Part shown: piece after piece, positions 43,351-59,728 of the stretch
Position numbering within the stretch: the first letter of the stretch is position 1
Layout: each line of letters opens with the position of its first letter
Assembly (NCBI GenBank): GCA_051047955.1
Contig: JBPGPT010000006.1
Span: forward strand, 372,001-436,000
Direction of reading: 5' to 3'
DNA from: Cystobasidiomycetes sp. EMM_F5
Lineage: Eukaryota
DNA: 64,000 nucleotides
Made by a program: the position numbers and the translations under genes
The notes under the pieces: generated by a model
What the model was told of the DNA's origin: nothing
What the model saw: only the letters and a program-made list of their open reading frames with translations
The model's database searches: none

Positions 43351-46300
43351 ATGGACTCTGTTACCCTGAAAGGCCTCAATGACAAGATTTATGATAAACG
43401 GAAAGCTGCGGCCTTGTCGCTGGAAACGTCAGTTTTGGCTATGACGGCGTACCGTAGTTCTGGCTGGGAAAGCTAACGGGTCGGCCTGCTATACTATGGC
43501 AACGGGCTCAATGTAGAGTTATCCGGGATGCTATCGCACACAATGAGCACGCCAAAGTTAGAAGTATCGTCAGGCAATTGCGAGACTTGGCCAACAATAC
43601 CGCCCCGGCAATGTCAAATACACGAAACGGGGGTATCATGGGTCTGGCCGGAGCGAGGTCTGAGTGCAAGCACTTGGTCGCTTTCTGATTGCTGATGCGA
43701 TGGTTTGTTGCGTTCGCAGTATCGCTCTGAGTCAACGAATAGGACCATATTTACAAATCATCATTCCGCCCATCCTGGCTTGCTTTTCGGACCCGGATCA
43801 TCGAGTTCGCTACTTTGCTTGCGAGAGCATGTACAATGTAGCCAAGGTAAGTCCACGTTATCGTGTACTGCACCAAATCCTCCTGATGTAGTGGCATCCG
43901 GTAATTCGACCAGGTTGCCAAGGGGGAACTGCTGGTATACTTCAACGAAGTTTTCGATGCGATGAGCAAGGTCCGTTTCATCACAGAATTCTCCAGAAGA
44001 ACATCGTCTCAGGGGTTGTGTGTACACAGCTAGCCGCAGATACGGATCAAGCAGTACGAAATGGCGGAGAATTGCTAGACCGTCTAGTCAAGGACATCGT
44101 GATTGAACAGGCATCGTCCTATGTATCGACACAGTCTACGCCACTGGACGAGACGGACTATCCGGATGACGATGTTGTCGACAACAAGGAAGACAAACGT
44201 CCTCACGAGCGTACGCATACTCAAGCTAGTATGGTCTCCGCTGGCCAATTCTCAGCCGGCACGGCAACAATATTGTCTAGAGAAGGAAAGAAGGCATTCT
44301 CCCTTGACCGATTCGTGCCGCTACTAGCTGAAAGAATGGCTGTCTTGAACCCATTCACGCGGACCTTCTTGGTCTCGTGGGTGACGGTACTAGATGCAAT
44401 TCCAGAACTGGAGCTGGTGTCGTACTTGCCGCACTTTCTTGATGGCCTCATCAGGTATCTTGGGGATCCTTCCGAGGAGATTCGCTATGCCACTATGCAC
44501 GTCTTGAGTGATTTTCTGAAAGAGATACGAGATGTTGCAGAGGTGAACCGGTCAATGGAAGAAGCCAAGGTTGCAAAGCGAGCAAATATACCGGCAGTCA
44601 AGGCTATCGATAGGTCGCCCAAGCAGAAGGCTTCGTTACGTGACAATAAAGCGGAAGGTAGTTCTGGCGTTGATCCATCTGCAGAGGATGCGCGCTCCGC
44701 AGCCACCTCGCGTCGACAGTCGCTGGAAGTACAAGAGAAGCCTTCAAGCAGCTTGAATGGGCAGCAGCCTTCACATTCGGCCGGAAGGGAGCAATCTACA
44801 AATGCCTTGCAAGGCATCAGCGAAGAAGAACAGCGTGAATCTGGAAGGACTAATGCGGAGCACTCGCAAGATGGGATGGGCAGCGACGTGGACGACGAAT
44901 ATGACCCAGACTTAGAAGATGCCGGTCACTGGATACCGGGCCAAGGTGTGAAGGTGGATCATGCGGCGATTGTGGAGATCTTGCTAAGTAACCTGTCGAC
45001 CACTGGTGAGTCAATTCGCCTTGTGAGTGCGTGCTTGTACTGAGAAGGTGTCTGCTTTGTGGTCCAGATGAGGAAGTTCAAGCAATCTGCCTGAGGTGGA
45101 TCGCAGAGTTTCTGCTCTTTGTCAAGGACACTATGGTTATGTTTACTCCTCGCCTAATTCCCGTCATGTTGCCGTGTCTAGCACATCACATCCCCGTCAT
45201 TCGGCAAGCTGCTCGTCAGACAAACGACAACCTGTTCCACGTCGTTCAGCAGCTGCCAGTCACTACTCAAGCACAACAATCGCCAGTGCCGTCGACAGAA
45301 GTATCGCCGCCTTCTGTGCCTTCCCAGCCAGGTCACGGAAGACGCGACTCGGCTTCTACAGCAAGGACTAATTTATCGTCCACTCAAACCGCTCCAGTCC
45401 CCTTCCCTACATCCACCCAGGTGAATGCCCTTGCTAAAGACCATGGAGGAAACAGTCTCGATGCCATGGTCAGCGACATTCACATTACCACCGAAAATGG
45501 CCAAACATCGCAAGCCAACGAAAAATATTCTCTTGATGGCTCCGATAGCACTCAAGATGCTCTCGATTACCCAGCGACAGTCAACGCGCTAACTCTACAG
45601 TTTTTGAATGAGAACGACAAAACCCGTGTTGCTGCTTTGAAATGGCTGTCGATGTTGCACTGGAAGGCTCCGAGAAGAGTCAGCATATCAAAAAGACAGC
45701 ATGATTTTGTAATACTGACTTCGCTGTCAATCTCAGATACTTTCTTTACATGACGGAACTTTCCCTGCGCTATTGAAGACACTTTCCGATCCTTCGGAGG
45801 ACGTAATCAGGGCGGATCTGCAATTGTTAGCGCAAATATCTTCGAATTCTGAGGAGGACTACTTTCCATACTTCATCACGAATCTGCTATCCCTTTTCAG
45901 TACAGACAGAAAGTTGCTGGAGACGCGTGGAAGTCTCATCATTCGTCAGCTCTGCACGAGCTTGAATACCGAGCGGATATACAGGACGTTCGCGGAATTG
46001 CTCGAGAAGGATGAAGTGAATTGATTTCCAGCATACCGTATTCAACATACTGATGAAGCTCTGCAGGATCTGGAATTTGCCAGCATAATGGTCCAGAACC
46101 TGCAATTGATCATGATCACATCACCGGAACTTACGGACTTTCGAAAGCGTCTAAAGAATCTGGAGACGAAGGATGGACAGCTTCTGTTCACAAATTTATA
46201 TAGATCTTGGTCCCATAATGCTGTGGCAGCATTTTCGCTTTGCTTGTTGGCTCAGGCATACGAGCATGCAGCGAATCTCCTTCAAATATTGTGAGTGTCG

Positions 46301-49542: not shown

Positions 49543-50952
49543 CTATCGACAATGACGACCGTCTGAAGCCAGCATACTCGCTATCAGCTGTACAGACTGG
49601 CTGCCAAGCTGCCACACCCCAGAGTTGGAATGCAGATCAAATATGGCAGTGTGCGCTTCAATTTCAGTCTTGGCAGTTTCGTTCAGATTGGAAACAAATT
49701 TGCTCTCCGCTTGTATGTATGCGCCGGGTAAAGTGGAAGCGCTGGGCAGGACAATGAATGTCCGGCCCTTTTCGTTGAGTAATGTATAGAAACTGCAAGG
49801 TGGCTTGTTAGAAGCAATAGAATGGAATGATTCCGAAACTGACCAATGAAATTGTACGTTGGAGTCTGCAAGCTCGAGAACTTCCTCCAACCGCTCTCGC
49901 ATTGCTTGCTCTTTCCACAGTTCGCCGACAAACTCGAAGTGCGAAGTGACCCAAAGCTGACTATTTGACGCAGTTGTAGCCAACTTCTCTCGACTATACC
50001 ACGCAGTGCCTGCCGCAGCTGCCAGTCTGAAAAAGTAGCATTTCAGCCTTGATTCCCGTCTCGATGAGCAACACTACTCACGCTGTCGCACCGGCTGCTG
50101 CGTACCCATACTTTCCCCACGAGCTTGCCGCCGCGGAGGCCTGTGCAGCTTTGCCCGCTCCTTTGAGCGACTGCGTGAGCGAGGAATCGTCGTCTGTAGC
50201 CCGCTGCTTTCCTTTATTGGTTGAAGCCGCTTTTGCCTTGTTCTTGCCATCGTCCTTGCCTTGGAGGAATGCCCAGCCCGCGCCGACAGACGTAGCGACT
50301 GCCTGCGCTTGTTGAACATAGCTCCATGCTTCACTCGCCCCGTTTTTGAAGACGCCAGGGTGTACACCCAGGTACGGAGTGTCGTATGCGATGATGCCGA
50401 CAAGACGGGGCCACATCCGTTCCTTCTCTCCCGCTTGAGCGTATCCACGAGCTATTGAGCGTGCACAGTCTGCGATGACGATACCACCCATGCTGTGGCC
50501 AATCAAGACGACTCTGGCGAGTTCCTTCTTGCCATTTCTAATGGTTGCGGCATAGTTCATCTCAATCTCCGCGACCTGAGTTGTGAGCCAGCTCCCGAAA
50601 GCTTCAACGCAGGCTGATAGCTCTCCCCTGGTCTGGAAAGCGGGGTATACGAGGGTGTGTACTGCAGTCAGCGGACGAGGCGAGGAAGTACCGCTGTCGG
50701 CATTGCCGTCGATGGAGCTTCTCGGGGTCGCCGTCGCTCCGGCATTGAAGAGGGTAGTCAGGTTGTGCTTTAAGCGGGAAGGAAAGTCGAGAAACGTCGT
50801 ATCGTCGCCTGCCAGACTGGTCAGCATTGTTCCGCCCAGCGTCACTGACATCCCAAACCTTTGAAGCCGTGGACAAAGGCCAGCACCGCGAGAGCTGGAC
50901 CATGGCTAGCCTGCCCGGTACTGCTGAGCGTGCCCGTATCGTCGACGTCCAT
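49543..50952 (-). CDS. Alpha/beta hydrolase, DUF676/lipase-like
   Basis: FVHGFKGDDTTF (across an intron), YPAFQTRGEL, nucleophile GHSMGG, AYDTPYLG, HFEFVGELW, EIEAHTAIF. Confidence 0.85.
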
Positions 50953-51115: not shown

Positions 51116-54100
51116 ATGCCTAAACCCTCTCTAGGCCAGAAGCTCTCTGGCAAGCCGAGCAGAAGTTACCTCGGTAGCGGGGCCTTCAGCGAGACTGGCA
51201 GCGTAGCTTCGTACCGCAGCGGCCTCGACAGCTTCACTTCCAACGACGTCTTTGGCTCCAAGCGGAAAGCCGCGGCGGCTGATGGCACCCCACCGGGCTC
51301 GCCGCTCCTTTCGACACCACAGGCAACTCCGTTGAAGAGCAGCCTGCGGTCCAAGCCTCGCGGATCAGCAGCTTCGGATGCGGGTATGGTCTATGGAGCT
51401 TCCCCGACGAGATCGAGCCCGTCAATAGCTTCTCGACTCTTTGGCGCAAGAATGGGTAGCAGCAGCGAGGCCGGGGGAAACCGCAAGTCTGTAGCTTTCA
51501 GCGAGTCGGACCCGTGGGATAGCCAGCCTGTGCCATACAATCCAACAAGCTATGCAAATGGATCCTCTTCTGGGCGTATTGGCAGTCTCTCGTTACAGAA
51601 TGTGACACAGCATGCAGCCTACAGCTCGCCTGTGCGCCGTAGGACACCTTCAATTATGTCGGACGGTGCTGGATCAGTCATATCTGATACCGGATCGATT
51701 TCCCGCAAACGCGGTAGTCGATCTGATGTGATAGTTTCGTCAATGTTGGGCACTAGTCCAAAGCCAGTCTCCCCACTCGCGACCAGTCCGAGTTCAGACA
51801 GGTGGCATAGGACACTGGGTGGAAAAGGAGATTCATTCACGCCAGGACCGCCAGCCTCATCCCGAAGCAATTATTCTTCTCGCTCGCCAAGTAAACTCAA
51901 TCAAGTCACAGACATCATACCCCGAAAGTCTTCCATGCGCAAATCACCATTCGACTTGGGCGACCCACAACCCTCGCGTCGGTACTCCATACAGCCTCCT
52001 GCTGCTGTAGCTGCCAGCGTTCCGGAGGCGCCCATCCCAAACCAGGCATCAAGTACCGCTCCCGCTCCCAATGGAACACCTCTTCTAAGCGTCCCAGAAG
52101 CAGATGACGATGCGATTTCTACGTCGTCTGCCAAATCTTCCACAAGTGGTGGACAATCAGCCGGAAAACGGAAGAAGCCCAAAGCTGCATCACTGACTTC
52201 TGCAGATGATCCGCCTCAAATTGCGAAGCATACTGCAAACGGCACGGAAAGGCCACAAGGCAGTGGTACTGTCATTGAGGAGAATATGTTTGGCAAAGAC
52301 ACCAGGACAAGTAGTACTACTGCGATGCCATCAACCGCGCAGACGTTGCATTCCGAAACATTACGCAACACGTTGCTGGCAGCCACTCCAGTCACCCGTC
52401 CCCAAATTGTCAGGGTGGGTCTGCAATTAAAGCGTCCGCCCGTTTCTTCGCTTGTGTGGCTGACATCAGATTATATTAGAACAAGTCAGCTGAACAAATT
52501 GTTGAGGCTCTCGCTAAAGCTGGCTTACTTGAGCGAGTCATGGAGGTCGTGCAGGAAGCCGATGAGGAGGGTGATACTTCGCTTGATTCGCGGCGGTCCT
52601 CAATGGCCGGCTTACCCAGGAGGAGCAGCGATGACACGATACAGGCGCCTAGTCGCACATACATGCAACAGCCTACTTTCATGGTGACCAGCCCGACTGT
52701 ACCGGATCTATCCACCGATGTCCATCAGACCCAGAATCACGACGTGCATGCCGCGACTAACGAAGCGGAATCTGTCTTGCCCTACGGCATGACGTATACG
52801 CAGCCAAAAGGCGCTAACACTGTGCCGGCTGCGTACACTGTGGTAGACAAAGTTTCCGGAGAACAGGGCACTGCTGTGGTCAACGAACCTCAGTGGGGTG
52901 TGGAGGACGCAAAGGAAGCTCTTCATATGGCGAGTGAGCCTGTTGTAAAGGCAGCCACTGCCGCCGAACAGCCCAAGCAGATCGATCAATCTCCCGCGAA
53001 AGAGTTGCACGGCATGCATGGTGCTGGAAAGGATGGCATCGACCAACAGATGCCGTCAGCATCGAGCCCTGTCATTTCGGCTGCCTCTCGCAAATCTGTG
53101 GATTCGGTGTATTCTACAAACTCGATAGGACAGGAGGCTGATGGGGAAGGCAAGCCTCAGGTCGATGTACCGACCGTCGCTCCGATATTGAATGCGAAAA
53201 ACGAATCGTCTTCGTCTAGCACAGCACCGCTCGAGACGAGCTATGCGGACGGCGAGACGCCTCAGATCGCTTCCTCAAAACCGCACGACTTGGTCTCTGA
53301 ATCGCCGTCTTCTCCGACATCCGAAACTCCAAGGCCAACGTCTCCAAAGAGTCCTCCGCGCCCCACAGCACCCACGCGAGAGGTATTGTCATTGATTGCC
53401 GCTGGATCTTTACCATTGCCTATACCAGGACTATCGCCCTTGCGTCTGGAATCACTCTCGCTCGCCAGCACGACTTCCCCAACCTTCTTCTCTCGCTCTC
53501 TCGCCGGCACTATTTTGGCACATGGTACTGCCACCCAAAGCACCGTCTCAGTACGTCTAACTTCCAATGATTGGCAGAGTCATGAGGAGATACCGGCCTT
53601 AAGTCAGCCGTTAAGTGCAGGCGACGCTGCCGATTTTCATCGGTATTCATTTGTATGGCCAATACCGCCGGGATCACGCTTTACTGCAGTATCCCTCGCA
53701 CTTCGCTTGGACGATGGAAGTGGTGGTTCTTATTGGGACAATAACGACGGTAAGAATTATTCCGCCAAAATTCCGGCTCTTCGTCGAACATCTTCCGTTC
53801 GAACTGCTTCCACTGCCAGCTTTGTATCGGTCATGCAGACGCCGCTCTCTTCTCCGCCGCTTGGCTTCAGCCGTGATGCGAGCACAGTCGAGCACGCTCA
53901 TGACACTCAGAACGCAAACATCGCCCGGATGCTTCCCAGAACGACAGACAGTGCCAGATTTCCAGCGGCGTCTCCGCCGTCGAGCAAGGACCGCGTGTCC
54001 CAGATTACGGTCGATCACAGCCAAGCTAATCAGCAACATGGTGCCACTCTTGGCGAGCCAATCGCACTAGCAGGTGAACAAATACCTGACACGCTAGAAA

Positions 54101-55848
54101 CGCTAGAAAGGTCTTCGGCGGATACGAATCCTACAAGTCAGCGAACCGCAGTCGCATCAATCGGAAATGCGGAACCTGCCCCATCAGCAGAGCTTGTCAG
54201 CGAGAGGCATAGCCATCTTCCCCATGGAGAGCGTAATGATGAAACACAAGGATTGCACCAGGCAGCAACTCCGGAGGGCCATGTACTTGGGCAGACTTCA
54301 GTAGATGGACCTTCAACAAAAAGCGCTGCCACTGAATCTGCCAAGCTACCGAACGGGCATACAGACATTGTCGATTCTAACCACCACGGGACACCTCCTC
54401 TGCTTACGTCACGCAACGCGGACCCGGACACAATCAGAAATGGCAACGAGAAGATGTCAGGTACGCAAGGCCTGCCGATGAATATGAAAGTCGGCGTGCC
54501 TGTCACAGGTACCGAAATAACAAGCAGTATCCCTGCGCCAAGATCCAATTCTGTTATGCGGTCGTTGTCGTTAGCTAGTCCGGTGCCGCAGACGCTCAAC
54601 AAAAGCTTCTGGCGTAATAATACCAATACGAAGCTTCGACAGAACCCACAGGCCCAACCCGCGCCTGCACTCAAGGGCTTTTCCAGTCCTGGCAGTATCA
54701 CATTCAATAGCATGACACCAGTCCCATACCGGATCCGGGGTGACGAGGTGCTCGTCAATGTATATGCGTCTGCAATCGACTTTTGGGATCGGACTAAAGT
54801 CGACGTCCTACGCGGAAGAAGCTCTGGGTACGGCTTCATTCCAGGTCGAGCTTTTGTGGGACGTGTCGTAGATACTGGGTCGGATGTCGATCCACGCCGA
54901 ACGAGGAAAGGCGATTTCGTCTATGGCGTTAGCGAACTGAAGACAGTAAGCGATCTCCGTTTCGTTATCGTGCTATCGTGCTAAATTTCTGATGTTGTGA
55001 CAGTCGGGTGCTCTAGCTGATTTTATGGCTGTGCATAGAGATAATCTTGCAAAAGCACCAAGCGGCGCACTCAGTCTCGAGCAAATTGCTGCCACTGCGC
55101 TTGCTGGCATTCCTGCTTACCAATGCATGGAGGAGTTGTGCAATAATCTTGTGAAAGGGTCGAAGTTGATTATACTCAATGCGCATGAGGGCGTCGGTGC
55201 CATCGCTCTGCAACTGGCTGCGGTTTTGCGACCCGAAAACGACCTGCATATTCTGGCGCACCACCCTCCGGACTTCACGAACGGCAACGCGGTCCTGCGT
55301 GGCTTGGGTGCAAACGAGACTTTAAGTGGTGAAATAACCTCTGCATTAGGGACTCTCAAAGAGTCGGGATACGATGCATTACTCGACAGCGTTGGAGGGC
55401 GCAAAGTGTACGACGCCGGGAAACACGCTTTGCGCAATGATGGCCTTTTTGGTAAAAAGTCATCTCTACACACGTGTATAGGCATTTCTGAGAATTTGCT
55501 TGCAGTCACGACTGTCGGTGATGCGCTGTCCGCTCCAAACGCTAGCGGGCAATGGAAAAAGAATATTAAGGCGCTGTTTAAACGAACAGAGAAGTCAAAG
55601 GCAAGTGCGCGAATGATTTGTTTTGCACGTCACCACTAACATCGACGTGCGGTCAGGCTATCTCATACTGGTTTCCGCAACCGGACGAGCACAATCAAAG
55701 ACTTGCTTTGGATCGATTGCGTGACATTTGCGAGCGAGGTCAGTTGCGGCCGGTCGTCAAGCGCGTGTACAAGTTTGAAGAAGGCGGAAAGGCGTTTGTG
55801 GGTCCCAACGAACAGGCCGTCGTCATGCTGCATCAAAAGACGGGATAA
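51116..55848 (+). CDS. Large protein: disordered region with RVxF motif + CBM21 domain + C-terminal MDR (GroES-like/Rossmann) oxidoreductase
   Basis: Intron 52415-52479 joins the 523-aa and 814-aa ORFs in frame. CBM21 motifs LRLESL...LAGTI...VSVRLTSNDW...YWDNNDGKNY. MDR motifs EVLVNVYASAID, GFIPGRAFVGRVV, GALADF, NAHEGVG, LDSVGG, GQLRPVV. Confidence 0.8.
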
Positions 55849-56055
55849 TACAACACGAGGCCTAGGGCTAAGGGGAGAACATATACACTGCATATCATCA
55901 GTAAACGGGCACGTAACATATAATACTCATGCATCAAGCACATCGTGTTGTCGTTGTCGATTTCGAGCGGAAAAGCTTGCGGAACATACGTCTAGGATAT
56001 GTTGGCCGCCTGCTCCACTTTGCCGTCCCCTCGACTGCGTCAAATCAGCCTCATC

Positions 56056-56568
56056 ATGGCCTCGCCAAACATATACGGCCAGGACCTGCCACCGCCTGGC
56101 GGCTTCGAGGCCATCAGATACAAGCGCAACCTTCCATCCAGAGGGCCTGGCGGTGCCGTCGTTTTTGCGGGAGTCTTCGCCGTCTGCCTGTTCGGGTTCT
56201 GGCGAGTTGGGCAAGGAAACTTGGAAAGACGGTGCGTACATGCTCAGGCAAACCAAGATATGTTCCGCACACTGGCTGAAGTGACAGCGGCGCAGTGAAT
56301 TACAACGGGAGAAAGCCTGGTCGAGGATTCACCTGGTACCGCTGCTGACGGCTGAAGGCGACCGCGATGTCTATCGAAGGTCACAAGCGGCTATGGCGAG
56401 GGAGCGAGAAATTATGAAGGATATTCCAGACTGGGAGGTGAGGCGGAACACTTCTCCAGGTCATCGCCCGCCGACTGAGCATCTGCCGTACTCACATTCG
56501 ACCAACAGGTCGGCAAATCTGTATACAACACCAAACGATACATCGCGCCAAGCATTGTAGTCCTGTAG
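56056..56568 (+). CDS. NDUFA13: Complex I subunit NDUFA13/GRIM-19
   Basis: QDLPPPGGFEAIRYKRNLPSRGP, EKAWSRIHLVPLLTAEGDRD, WEVGKSVYNT. Three exons. Confidence 0.95.
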
Positions 56569-56843: not shown

Positions 56844-59728
56844 CTAACGCCTAGGTGATACTGACATTGCTTCGAAAGAGGCGGAAAAACCATGATTGAG
56901 CGAAGTCTGGTTGTGCCCCAGCAGAGCAGGATCGATCAGGTCGTGCATTGGCACCGACGCGACATCAAATGAGGGCCTGTAAGGTGCAGCGTTCATACTT
57001 GTGGCCATGTAGTCGTCGCCTGCTGAGTCTGAAACAGATGTAGAGACTGCCGAACTATCTTCCGCCTCAGTGTCTGCATCGTCATCTTCGTCGTCTTCTA
57101 CAAAGCCGGAATCCCATGCTCGATAGATATCTGTAATGAAGGTAGCCGATAATGGCAATTTGTACGGGTCGAAAGGGAAATGTGAATCGATTTGCGCTTC
57201 CTTAAGAGTCTGCTTGACCGATACAGAATCTACCGTTGAAGGTTGCGACGTCGAACGAGGGAGAGAAGGGTGCGGTGGACGAGCACCAAGATCATCACTG
57301 CTATAGTTGTCCGATGTCGGTGATGCTGCTATGACTGTATTGCGGCGTGAGCGAGACTGGCGATTGTTGGCGTCGACAATGGAGTGACAGTACATAAAGT
57401 CTGTCTTATGGGCCATACGAGCAAATTGTGTTGTCACGATAGATGAACACATCTGTTCATGGTGCACACGAGCGATCAACGGATGAGGCAAGACAATCAG
57501 ATACTTGACTTACCAGAAGCGGATTGAAACCACTAGTAATGGCTTGCTTGAGAATGTCGAGTTCGGCAACCCATCTGCGCGACGAAGGGACTCCCTCAAG
57601 ATCCTCGATTTCGTGCTCATTCTCCTCGAGAAGATCTCTCCAGCGGAAGCAAAAGATGTAGCATGCCGCCTGGACAACAGCATAAAAGATGACACTGCTC
57701 TTGGCAATCTTATCTGCAGCAGAGGCTGTATGGAAGGAGCTGGGAGCAGATGTTTGCACAGCCATAAGCGCATGGCGGAGCTCCTCCATCTCGTCTTCAA
57801 GGTACGTGCAGAGAAGGCCCATAACCCGCTGAGTGGCGATTCTGTCGATACTTTGTGCGCGCGCCACAAAGCTCGCAACATATCCTGCTGCTGCTGCTCG
57901 TGTCACGATAGGCGTATCTCTGTCGTCTAGCGCTCGGCTGATGAGAGATCCGGTGAAATGGTCTGCAAACTCGGCAGAGAGCGAAGCGTACCAAAAGAAG
58001 ATGAACTGAACGTGGCGCGTCTTGAACGTATGTAATACCTTCTCGTCAAAGATGGTAAGCAGGATGTCGAATATCGTCCGACGCAGGATGGCAACTGTGG
58101 CTGTTGTCATAGTGGTGGGAACCGCATCAACTGCATCAAGGGTGGGAGTCTCGGCATTCGGAGCCAATGATGGATCAGAAGGCGACGTCGGCAAGAATGA
58201 GAAAGCGCGTTCGATGGCAGTCGGTGTACGCGTATTTGAATGGGATGAGGAGCTGAGTCTTTGCAAGAAATCGAAAATCACCTTCATGATGGCATCCAAC
58301 TTTGCCGCCATTTCCTTTAACCGCTTGATGGCTTTCGGTGTCAGCTTCTTCTCCGTAGAACCGGCAGCTACATCTTCGCCACCGTTGTCATTATCCATAT
58401 CGCCCTCATGATCGCTGCCAGACGATATAGCATCCAGGTCTTGACCTTCGTTGTCGGACTCGCTGTCAGAATCATCTTCATCGCCAACAACTCGGTCAAA
58501 TGCATTCTCGACCGTATATCCGAAGACTTCCTGATCGAGCTGACCGTCTTCGTCTTCGAGTTCTTCGACATCGACCTGAATTTCGGTCTGCATGTTGGAC
58601 ATCAGCATATGTCGTTGAGTGCTGCATCAATATTACTCACGTCAATGTCCAAGGCTCGCAAAATGACAGCTCCTAGTACGTTCTCGCCAAGACTCGGACA
58701 GTACTCGATAATCCTGAGAGCATTCGAAATATACACGACTTGCGAATTGCGATTCTCTCGCTTATGCGGGAAGTGCCGGTTCAGTACTGGCCATAGCGTC
58801 GATGGGAGTGTGGGTATGAGATATATGAGTGAGCTGAGCAGTCGATGTAAGCGTTCGTACGTCTGTCGGCGAGTGACAGCATCCGTAAGCTGCTGCGACG
58901 AGCCTTCCGAAGAATATGCAGTGTGAGACTCTGCAGGATAACACCTTTAGTATAAATACACAGCTTCAACTGTGGTGCAGCGTACGGAAGCGGAAGCCTC
59001 TGATGATCTTATCCAGAGCAGATCCGACGAATTCTGACCGGGCCGACAACAGTGCTTGTACGAAGCGGACGTAAGCATTCACGAACAAATCGTCCATTGC
59101 CGTCCACGGCAAAGACGTGATTGCTTCGACCAGGGACGATGTCGAACGGTCGAGTTGTGCGACGTAGTGAGTGAGTGCCTCCAGATAGGCTTTCAACGTT
59201 GCGGATGACGGGGCAGACGCCGTTGAAGTGGAAGCGGAACCAGACGGCCGGCTCGACGCAGCGTTGTCCAACATACTGGTAGGGGAAACTGCCCGGAACT
59301 GCGACACCAATTCGTTGTATGATCCACTTCGACCCTACAAATTCGACGGAAAAGGTCAGTATAGATCTGTCAAGCGATACCGCACCATCTCAGCTCGCCT
59401 TGCGACGTTCTTGCAGAGCGTTGTCGACAAAGGCTAGAAACATGCCGCGAGAATATGGCAACGGAGCATGAGTCGCGCCCATCTTTGCCGGACTCGATGT
59501 GGAAGCCGAGGCGGCAGCAGCTACAAACGAGGCCAGCTTGTTTTTCTTGCGGTTCTGCGACATGTGGGACAGGTCTGGGCTGACGCTGAGTGCCGCTGGC
59601 CGTTTTCCAGGTTTTCCTCCAATGCTGCGGTCCTGATGATGCGCTGATGGCAGAATGTGCCGCGATACGCTGCCCGCCCCGCCAGTAGAAGGTGCACCAG
59701 CGCTTCCAGTGCCCGCCTTACTCACCAT
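56844..59728 (-). CDS. RRN3: RNA polymerase I initiation factor RRN3
   Basis: FPHKRE, YISNALRIIEYCP, DVEIQVDVEELED, KLDAIM, TRHVQFIFFW, AAGYVASFVARA, FYAVVQAACYIFCFRWRDL, FNPL, HFPFDPYKLP. Confidence 0.95.

Follow-up and report, generated by a model that had tools for sequence, protein, structure and literature searches.

A 64,000-nucleotide stretch of the genome of Cystobasidiomycetes sp. EMM_F5 (positions 372,001 to 436,000 of contig JBPGPT010000006.1, assembly GCA_051047955.1; hereafter the window, from whose first nucleotide all positions are counted) carries, at 51116-55848, a five-exon gene whose product is one protein of 1499 residues. Most of this protein is poor in hydrophobic residues; its two folded parts are a CBM21 domain of the PPP1R3 type in the middle and, at the C-terminus, a medium-chain dehydrogenase/reductase (MDR) domain like those of quinone oxidoreductases (QOR) and RTN4IP1. 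The matches to both domains are far beyond chance, and the gene represents a variant, conserved and so far uncharacterised, whose PPP1R3-type CBM21 lacks its glycan site and lies inside a fungal MDR-family scaffold. An earlier note on this DNA had read the gene as a glycogen-targeting module of protein phosphatase 1 (PP1) fused to an oxidoreductase; to our knowledge the glycogen-targeting PP1 subunits are textbook scaffolds that have no enzyme-like domain.

Gene structure and splicing

The coding sequence (4500 nt, + strand) begins with the ATG at 51116 and ends with the TAA that closes at 55848. Exon 1 (51116..52414; 433 codons, recognised by its open reading frame (ORF) and splice phase) is Ser/Pro-rich with short conserved motifs, and exon 2 (52480..54945; 822 codons) is a single open frame that contains an acidic helix block, the CBM21, a linker and the N-terminal part of the MDR domain. 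Exons 3 (55004..55451) and 4 (55506..55600) are placed by splice signals and by alignment with P0016, a protein of 1589 aa from public collections, and exon 5 (55657..55848) ends with the stop codon; all lie on the + strand, as do the four introns. Introns 1 to 3 are of the GT-AG type. Intron 1 (52415..52479; 65 nt, phase 0) reads GTGGGT...CTGAC...TAG with CTGAC as its branch site, intron 2 (54946..55003; 58 nt) is likewise of phase 0 and has its junction matched by P0016, and intron 3 (55452..55505; 54 nt) is in frame and free of stop codons, its 18 residues being missing from P0016. Retention of intron 3 would put 18 extra residues inside the Rossmann domain with the frame unbroken. Intron 4 (55601..55656; 56 nt, GCAAGT...ACTAAC...CAG) is a GC-AG intron with AAG preceding the GCAAGT donor and a perfect ACTAAC branch site, and its joint agrees with the alignment to the P0016 orthologue.

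Three observations indicate that exon 1 is joined in frame to the CBM21-MDR exons in a single gene. First, P0016, the sole full-length CBM21-bearing relative among the stored family proteins, aligns with the spliced product from end to end (blastp E 6e-88), begins MPKPSL as here, is continuous across all three downstream junctions and unites the flanks of both exon 1 and exon 2 in one protein. Second, the 20 codons with which exon 2 opens, NKSAEQIVEALAKAGLLERV, are kept in relatives and lie directly 3' of the AG acceptor and its TAG stop codon and 5' of the first in-frame ATG, upstream of which the conserved peptide AEQIVEALAKAGLLERV is also found; codons conserved in that position require an upstream exon. 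Third, the N-terminal motif and the helix block (below) stand in one protein in relatives that have no CBM21. The in-frame canonical intron that the earlier note had placed at 52415-52479 is supported by the phase and by the P0016 flanks. The alternative, that two genes were wrongly joined here, would make exon 1 a separate gene of 523 codons ending at 52687 and start the CBM21-MDR gene at the ATG at 52540, from which gene callers do list an 814-aa ORF (present in a public collection as P0001); given the three observations above, we consider it very improbable.

Intron 2 appears to be shared by the family. Of 96 family ORFs, 51 terminate no more than 30 aa past the position of this intron, and K, R, T, A or Q followed by V stands at that position in all but one of 25 ORF tails inspected, which fits a conserved phase-0 GT donor. 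ORF-style calls (P0001-P0010, P0011) cut the family at this conserved intron after the N-terminal block of the MDR domain or, in P0010 and P0011, read through introns, so domain surveys would see "CBM21 alone" or miss the MDR part. A word-index search among longer proteins gave no match.

The CBM21 domain

The CBM21 domain spans 53395..53778 on the + strand (residues 739-866), as delimited by Pfam, a family hidden Markov model (HMM), profile matches in the PDB and the β-sandwich of an AlphaFold model. The earlier note had suspected such a domain at about 53440-53770, and Pfam does find CBM_21 at 53491-53763 (exon-2 residues 338-428; E 3e-11, 44 bits against a cut-off of 28.9). In the PDB, a profile built from six relatives had no matches other than to the CBM21 domains of PPP1R3C, PPP1R3A and PPP1R3B, with E-values from 5e-13 to 2e-9. 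The AlphaFold model of the 814-aa ORF, made from a shallow alignment of 6 sequences, has a mean pLDDT (predicted local distance difference test) of 40, and its sole confidently folded unit is a β-sandwich at P0001 residues 280-410 (block-mean pLDDT 55-78); the truncated start of the MDR domain shows a few short strands (block-mean 44-54). A Foldseek search with this model gave PPP1R3 CBM21 structures as its top eight matches. A glucoamylase-type starch-binding domain is ruled out, since PPP1R3 chains alone appeared at E<=1 in the PDB profile search and the Rhizopus domain (2djm) came only ninth in Foldseek.

Two surface sites are of particular interest in domains of this type. For PTG, PMC9582199 in its excerpted text gives site II as the primary glycan site, and for GM the excerpts of PMC6235537 describe a site 1 (N228, in the conserved patch) that recruits the glycogen synthase GYS1 and a site 2 that binds glycogen. 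We mapped the PTG residues (lists from PMC9582199) by profile alignment, with a chain offset of 130 that was checked on W246 and N177. The equivalent of the GVNK loop and glycan site II (53506..53541, + strand) reads G..A.G....S, without an aromatic residue, and PTG N177, F180, E181 and K182 become G, T, Q and S in the present protein. Site I (PTG R187, W193, W246, N248 and N253) is kept, and its R, W, W, N and N are invariant in our CBM21 alignment (A1); its WDNNDGKNY patch, at 53734..53760 on the + strand (YWDNNDGKNY at 53731-53760), contains the equivalents of PTG W246, N248 and N253 and of the GM N228 patch.

The same pattern holds when all of the CBM21 segments found by one search are compared, 14 from the CBM21+MDR family and 54 stand-alone. 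The GVNK pattern G-x3-[VI]-x-N-x4-K occurs in none of the 14 family members and in 43 of the 54 stand-alone domains, and N-x-x-[FYW]-x-K in one and 44 of them, respectively, while the WDNNxGxNY-type patch is present in 14/14 and 54/54. With site I kept and site II lost, this CBM21 looks, by analogy with PTG and GM, suited to holding a client protein and not glycogen.

The MDR domain

The QOR-like MDR domain extends over 54556..55845 (+ strand; residues 1126-1499, exons 2-5), on the basis of partial Pfam matches, P0016 and the predicted structure of P0051, a relative that has no CBM21. Scanned as single exons, the gene gives an ADH_N match of 19.2 bits from 54742, below the cut-off of 23.5, and ADH_zinc_N_2 matches of 14.3 and 24.5 bits; P0016 is above the Pfam cut-offs for both (ADH_N 31.7 bits, ADH_zinc_N_2 37.2 bits). 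The family HMM puts the start of the domain at 54538-54556, in the same open frame as the CBM21, so the earlier note was right in placing the beginning of an MDR domain in the 814-aa ORF. Against the PDB, P0016 matched QOR-like chains (4ida at E 1e-13, then 3fbg, 3tqh, 2vn8 and 5a3j). When the MDR domain of the P0051 model is divided into blocks of 10 residues, most of them score pLDDT 80-96, with a dip to 52-68 near residues 630-660 and values of 90-96 in the Rossmann region, and the nearest folds to the model are RTN4IP1 (Foldseek E 1e-23) and then VAT-1. The sequence matches and the model together indicate that a GroES-like N-terminal domain and a Rossmann domain are both present in this MDR family.

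The dinucleotide-binding loop of the domain is atypical. It reads NAHEGVG (55178..55198, + strand) in place of the glycine-rich GxGxxG or AxxGxxG of QOR-like MDRs, and its Glu aligns with the central Gly of GAGGVG/GASGGVG in all four of the PDB relatives aligned (2vn8, 3fbg, 4ida and 3tqh). A side chain at the central glycine of a Rossmann loop hinders contact with the pyrophosphate. The earlier note had called this loop degenerate; it is indeed unusual, but it is a family-wide signature and not a sign of decay. A loop of the form xAH[E/D/A/V/K]Gx is present in 28 family segments, and in the 18 MDR domains of at least 280 aa the AHxG loop has A in 89%, H in 83% and G in 89%. The same 18 full domains share family signatures (D..D, PGRxFxG, Q and D..GG), in which D1200, D1203, P1221-G-R, F1225, Q1325, D1383 and G1386 are invariant. 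A decaying pseudogene is ruled out by the intact frames and these conserved signatures, and a zinc alcohol dehydrogenase is ruled out as well: PGRAFVG aligns to PGHEVVG of 2cf5 (GHE to GRA), and PGRxFxG is invariant in the family. The excerpted text of PMC10889790 gives the GXG(X)2G motif as conserved in all 20 MDRs of T. asahii, which are 308-416 aa long; given those lengths, the present family is not among them.

Conservation of the fusion and its origin

The fusion is a conserved one. With the CBM21-to-MDR part as query, an exhaustive HMMER search gave 207 proteins at E<=1e-3; Pfam was run on 60 of the 150 listed, and of these 13 had CBM_21 (8 above the cut-off) and 11 had both CBM_21 and ADH_N. 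By family HMMs, 96 stored proteins (the present spliced protein included) have the N-terminal block of the MDR domain, and 14 of these, again including the present one, also have an upstream CBM21. In a maximum-likelihood tree of the MDR N-terminal block (71 rows, 131 columns) all 14 of the latter fall on one side of a branch with 100/100 support, and none of the 40 rows on the opposite side has a CBM21; many rows are ORF fragments, and a row on the CBM21 side that has no CBM21 has often simply been truncated.

The N-terminal parts of the protein are more widely distributed than the CBM21. The motif MPKPSLGQKLSGKPSRSY (M..P[ST]L...L..PS..Y; 51116..51169, + strand) is common to 13 stored family proteins, among them CBM21-less proteins that include members of the other deep branch, and it is modelled as a short helix in the predicted structure of P0051. 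The acidic helix block AEQIVEALAKAGLLERVMEVVQEADEE (52489..52569, + strand) has a core, R[VM][MS][EA]V.[EQ]E.[DE], that is found in 11 family proteins, 5 with a CBM21 and 6 without. From this block to the MDR domain there are about 90 residues in P0051 and about 660, CBM21 included, in the present protein. Since the N-terminal motif and the helix block are common to CBM21-less relatives, these comparisons indicate that the CBM21 was inserted into an older protein made of a disordered region and an MDR domain, between the helix block and the MDR domain, in one of the two deep branches. The family of the gene is best described as fungal proteins with the N-terminal motif, a long low-complexity region, the acidic helix block and an AHxG-loop MDR domain.

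This history bears on the idea that the protein is a classical glycogen-targeting PP1 subunit of the Gac1/PPP1R3 type that has gained an MDR domain which depends on or senses NAD(P)H, tying glycogen control to the redox state. The PPP1R3 type of its CBM21, the RVxF-like motif kept in close relatives (below) and the intact MDR fold of the P0051 model all agree with this idea. On the other side stand the lack of GVNK and site II in 14/14 family members, the replacement of the central Gly of the dinucleotide loop throughout the family, and an N-terminus that is older than the CBM21; because CBM21-less relatives share that N-terminus, the protein did not acquire its RVxF-like site together with the CBM21 in a single Gac1-like module. 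In addition, a review of fruiting-body genomics, as excerpted, reports separate Gac1 orthologues in Agaricomycetes beside Basidiomycota-specific CBM21 orthogroups of unknown function that it describes as "CBM21 alone" (PMC10282164). We therefore regard a classical subunit of this kind as quite unlikely, and the earlier proposal of RVxF plus CBM21 as a glycogen-targeting module does not hold up: site II is missing, the two elements are about 650 residues apart, and the N-terminus belongs equally to proteins without a CBM21.

A metagenome scan with alignment A1 kept 80 loci, of the CBM21 part only, and tblastn queries of the N-terminus and the MDR part had no match in them. Two 151-nt phyllosphere metagenome contigs (run X1) are identical to window positions 53744-53894 and 54021-54171. 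A third record matches 55001-55035 only and is unlike the window on both sides, with a GCTAAC-containing stretch upstream, where the gene has intron 2; its source may be a relative that has an intron in the equivalent position.

The N-terminal region and its RVxF-like motif

Exon 1 encodes a region with 19% hydrophobic residues in which a Pfam scan found no family, and its homologues are P0152 (50% identity) and P0153 (38% identity). The scan pattern for PP1-docking motifs, [RK]-x(0,1)-[VI]-{P}-[FW], has a sole match in the protein, RKSVAF followed by S-E, at 51482..51499 on the + strand (residues 123-128), which is the string picked out in the earlier note as fitting the docking consensus. 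P0152 and P0153 read RRSVTFSD at the aligned site, so R, S, V, F and S are invariant in both of the close exon-1 homologues, and the residue at F+2 is E in the present gene and D in the other two. It is because the motif is kept in these two relatives that it rises above chance. Close precedents are the validated yeast RVxF-type motifs KKVAF (eIF2-gamma) and RHNVRW (Ypi1), as listed in excerpts of PMC6506691, and in GM an acidic residue, D70, stands at F+2 of the RVxF motif (PMC6235537, as excerpted). Docking of PP1 by the motif in the present clade is plausible on these sequence grounds, with the chances about evenly balanced. The expectation of the earlier note that the motif would be conserved in orthologues held for two of two close relatives (P0152 and P0153) and failed for the full-length, CBM21-bearing P0016.

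A different string that also fits the pattern, W[AS]KD[VI]RW, is almost invariant in 17 proteins of the CBM21-less sister branch (P0029, P0035, P0036, P0041-43, P0047, P0048, P0050, P0051, P0055, P0056, P0060, P0072, P0092, P0094 and P0141). The P0051 model places it some 65 residues before the acidic helix block, in a stretch of low confidence, and P0035 has in addition KRVSW close to its N-terminus. Overall the RVxF pattern is present in 10 of the 13 proteins with an intact N-terminus, where the chance expectation per protein is 0.08-0.31.

Other short motifs are conserved here as well. The RKSVAF block is tied for third among the conserved 8-mers of exon 1, of which the best kept are RTPSIMSD (51641-51664), SRSYLGSG (51158-51181) and PSRRYSIQ (51971-51994); several of the conserved blocks resemble RRxS-type phosphorylation sites. 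Downstream of the CBM21, 11 of the 14 CBM21-bearing members have a linker motif, P-[RKQ]-[VIM]-x-[LVF]-x-[RS]-[TS]-x-S-[DEQ], that is like a basophilic-kinase site; it is seen among the relatives P0002-P0024 and is degenerate in the present gene (ARMLPRTTDS, 53923-53952).

These observations must also be weighed for the possibility that the protein is not a PP1 regulator at all, in which case the RVxF-like strings would be short motifs of another kind, such as phosphorylation sites, within a disordered region, the role of the protein would be that of the AHxG-MDR family (possibly enzymatic, on an unusual substrate or cofactor), and the CBM21 would add only localisation or contact with a client. 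Chance matches to the RVxF pattern are common, three of the 13 proteins with an intact N-terminus have none, basophilic-kinase-like motifs such as RTPSIMSD, PSRRYS and PRVxLxRTxSD are equally well or better kept, and the MDR domain's own strongly conserved signature suggests a selected activity. Two clades, however, each keep an RVxF-fitting motif in a low-confidence region, and this CBM21 subtype is otherwise found in PP1 subunits. We hold this possibility to be doubtful, but it deserves serious attention.

A possible role as a regulatory scaffold

The reading that we favour, although tentatively and as falling somewhat short of an even chance when taken as a whole, is that the protein is a regulatory scaffold and not a classical glycogen anchor. 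PP1 (Glc7) would dock at the conserved R-[KR]-S-V-[AT]-F-S-[ED] site, and the CBM21, with its WDNNxGxNY patch and without the GVNK glycan site, would present glycogen synthase or another client and would not bind glycogen tightly. The MDR domain, a Rossmann fold with Glu at the central glycine of its loop, would probably be a non-canonical ligand-binding, sensor or assembly module, and is probably not a standard NADPH quinone reductase. A more far-reaching version of this reading would make the whole Dikarya-wide family an undescribed class of PP1 regulatory subunits, with a clade-specific RVxF-type site and a metabolite-sensing AHxG pseudo-oxidoreductase as its MDR domain, in which the basidiomycete CBM21 insert, having a glycogen-synthase patch and no glycan binding, points the phosphatase at glycogen synthase under metabolite control; we think this version improbable.

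Several points weigh against a regulatory scaffold of this kind. The case for PP1 binding is made at the level of a motif whose pattern is degenerate: at least one RVxF match arises by chance in 51% of whole-protein shuffles and 13% of exon-1 shuffles, P0016, P0023 and P0026 have no match to the pattern, and the count of 10 in 13 amounts to about three independent motifs, since relatives inherit them. P0152 and P0153 are homologues of exon 1 and may or may not come from CBM21-MDR genes. Some 650 residues separate the motif from the CBM21, compared with about 135 in C. albicans C1_01140Cp. The join of exons 1 and 2 depends on splice signals and a predicted orthologue, the loss of GVNK is deduced from how one loop aligns to an HMM (and glucans could still bind at site I), and the suggestion that the Glu blocks NADPH binding derives from textbook rules for Rossmann folds.

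Relation to known proteins

The present protein resembles the PPP1R3/Gac1 subunits (PTG, GM and GL; yeast Gac1, Pig1, Pig2 and Gip2; C. albicans C1_01140Cp) in the subtype of its CBM21, judged by both sequence and fold and with the WDNNxGxNY patch present, in an N-terminal motif of RVxF-like form whose F+2 residue is acidic, and in long regions of low hydrophobicity. It differs from them in the lack of GVNK/site II, in the roughly 650 residues between motif and CBM21, in the additional C-terminal MDR domain, in an N-terminus homologous to that of CBM21-less MDR proteins, and in a putative PP1 link that is drawn from the motif. With the QOR-like MDRs (human RTN4IP1 2vn8, VAT-1 6lhr/6k9y, strawberry enone oxidoreductase 4ida, ceQORH 5a3j, and 3fbg) it shares the GroES-like plus Rossmann fold and the absence of the zinc-type GHE. 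Unlike them, the present family has an AH[E/D/x]G loop instead of (G/A)xGG, its own D..D and PGRxFxG signatures, and an MDR domain that is attached to 400-1200 low-complexity residues.

A partial parallel is offered by the fungal Hybrid B heme peroxidases with a CBM21/CBM34-like domain, in which, according to the excerpted text of PMC5571214, a redox-type domain is likewise combined with a CBM21-like module whose glycan-binding residues are not conserved. Those proteins, on the other hand, are secreted, come from ascomycete plant pathogens and have a CBM model that is like the glucoamylase-type CBM21 and unlike the PPP1R3 type (PMC5571214). They are unrelated to the MDR family. The Basidiomycota-specific orthogroups of the fruiting-body review are, like the present family, CBM21 proteins distinct from Gac1, and differ in being described as CBM21 alone in the excerpts of PMC10282164; they might be members of the present family with shortened gene models. 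A lead, and no more than that, is the single CBM21 protein of U. crameri, which has 1007 aa by the excerpted account (PMC11546739), a length near that of P0010 (1021 aa), a sequence that continues into the intron.

Our literature searches found no paper on a CBM21 + MDR architecture, which agrees with the earlier supposition that it is undescribed, although such proteins are already in public predicted-protein sets, as P0016 is. P0016 is present letter for letter in the ESM Atlas, where its nearest clusters are automatically named "Enoyl reductase domain-containing protein" or hypothetical; one of these is recorded as Basidiomycota and others as Ascomycota.

Genomic surroundings

The locus lies in ordinary fungal chromosomal DNA with a GC content of about 0.5-0.58. 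Its neighbours are a Vac14-like gene (43892-45043), an ORF for an alpha/beta hydrolase (50078-50905, - strand), GRIM-19, a subunit of complex I (55996-56298), and RRN3 (56844-58626, - strand), and these have no evident functional link to the gene.

Significance

In this gene a PPP1R3-type CBM21 is found within a conserved fungal MDR protein, and both modules are without their canonical ligand sites and yet are under selection. Public protein sets of the ORF type split the family at a conserved intron, and its architecture is thereby hidden from domain surveys. If the protein does bind both PP1 and glycogen synthase, it would represent a new control route for storage-carbohydrate metabolism in basidiomycetes, and a case in which the MDR fold serves as a regulator.

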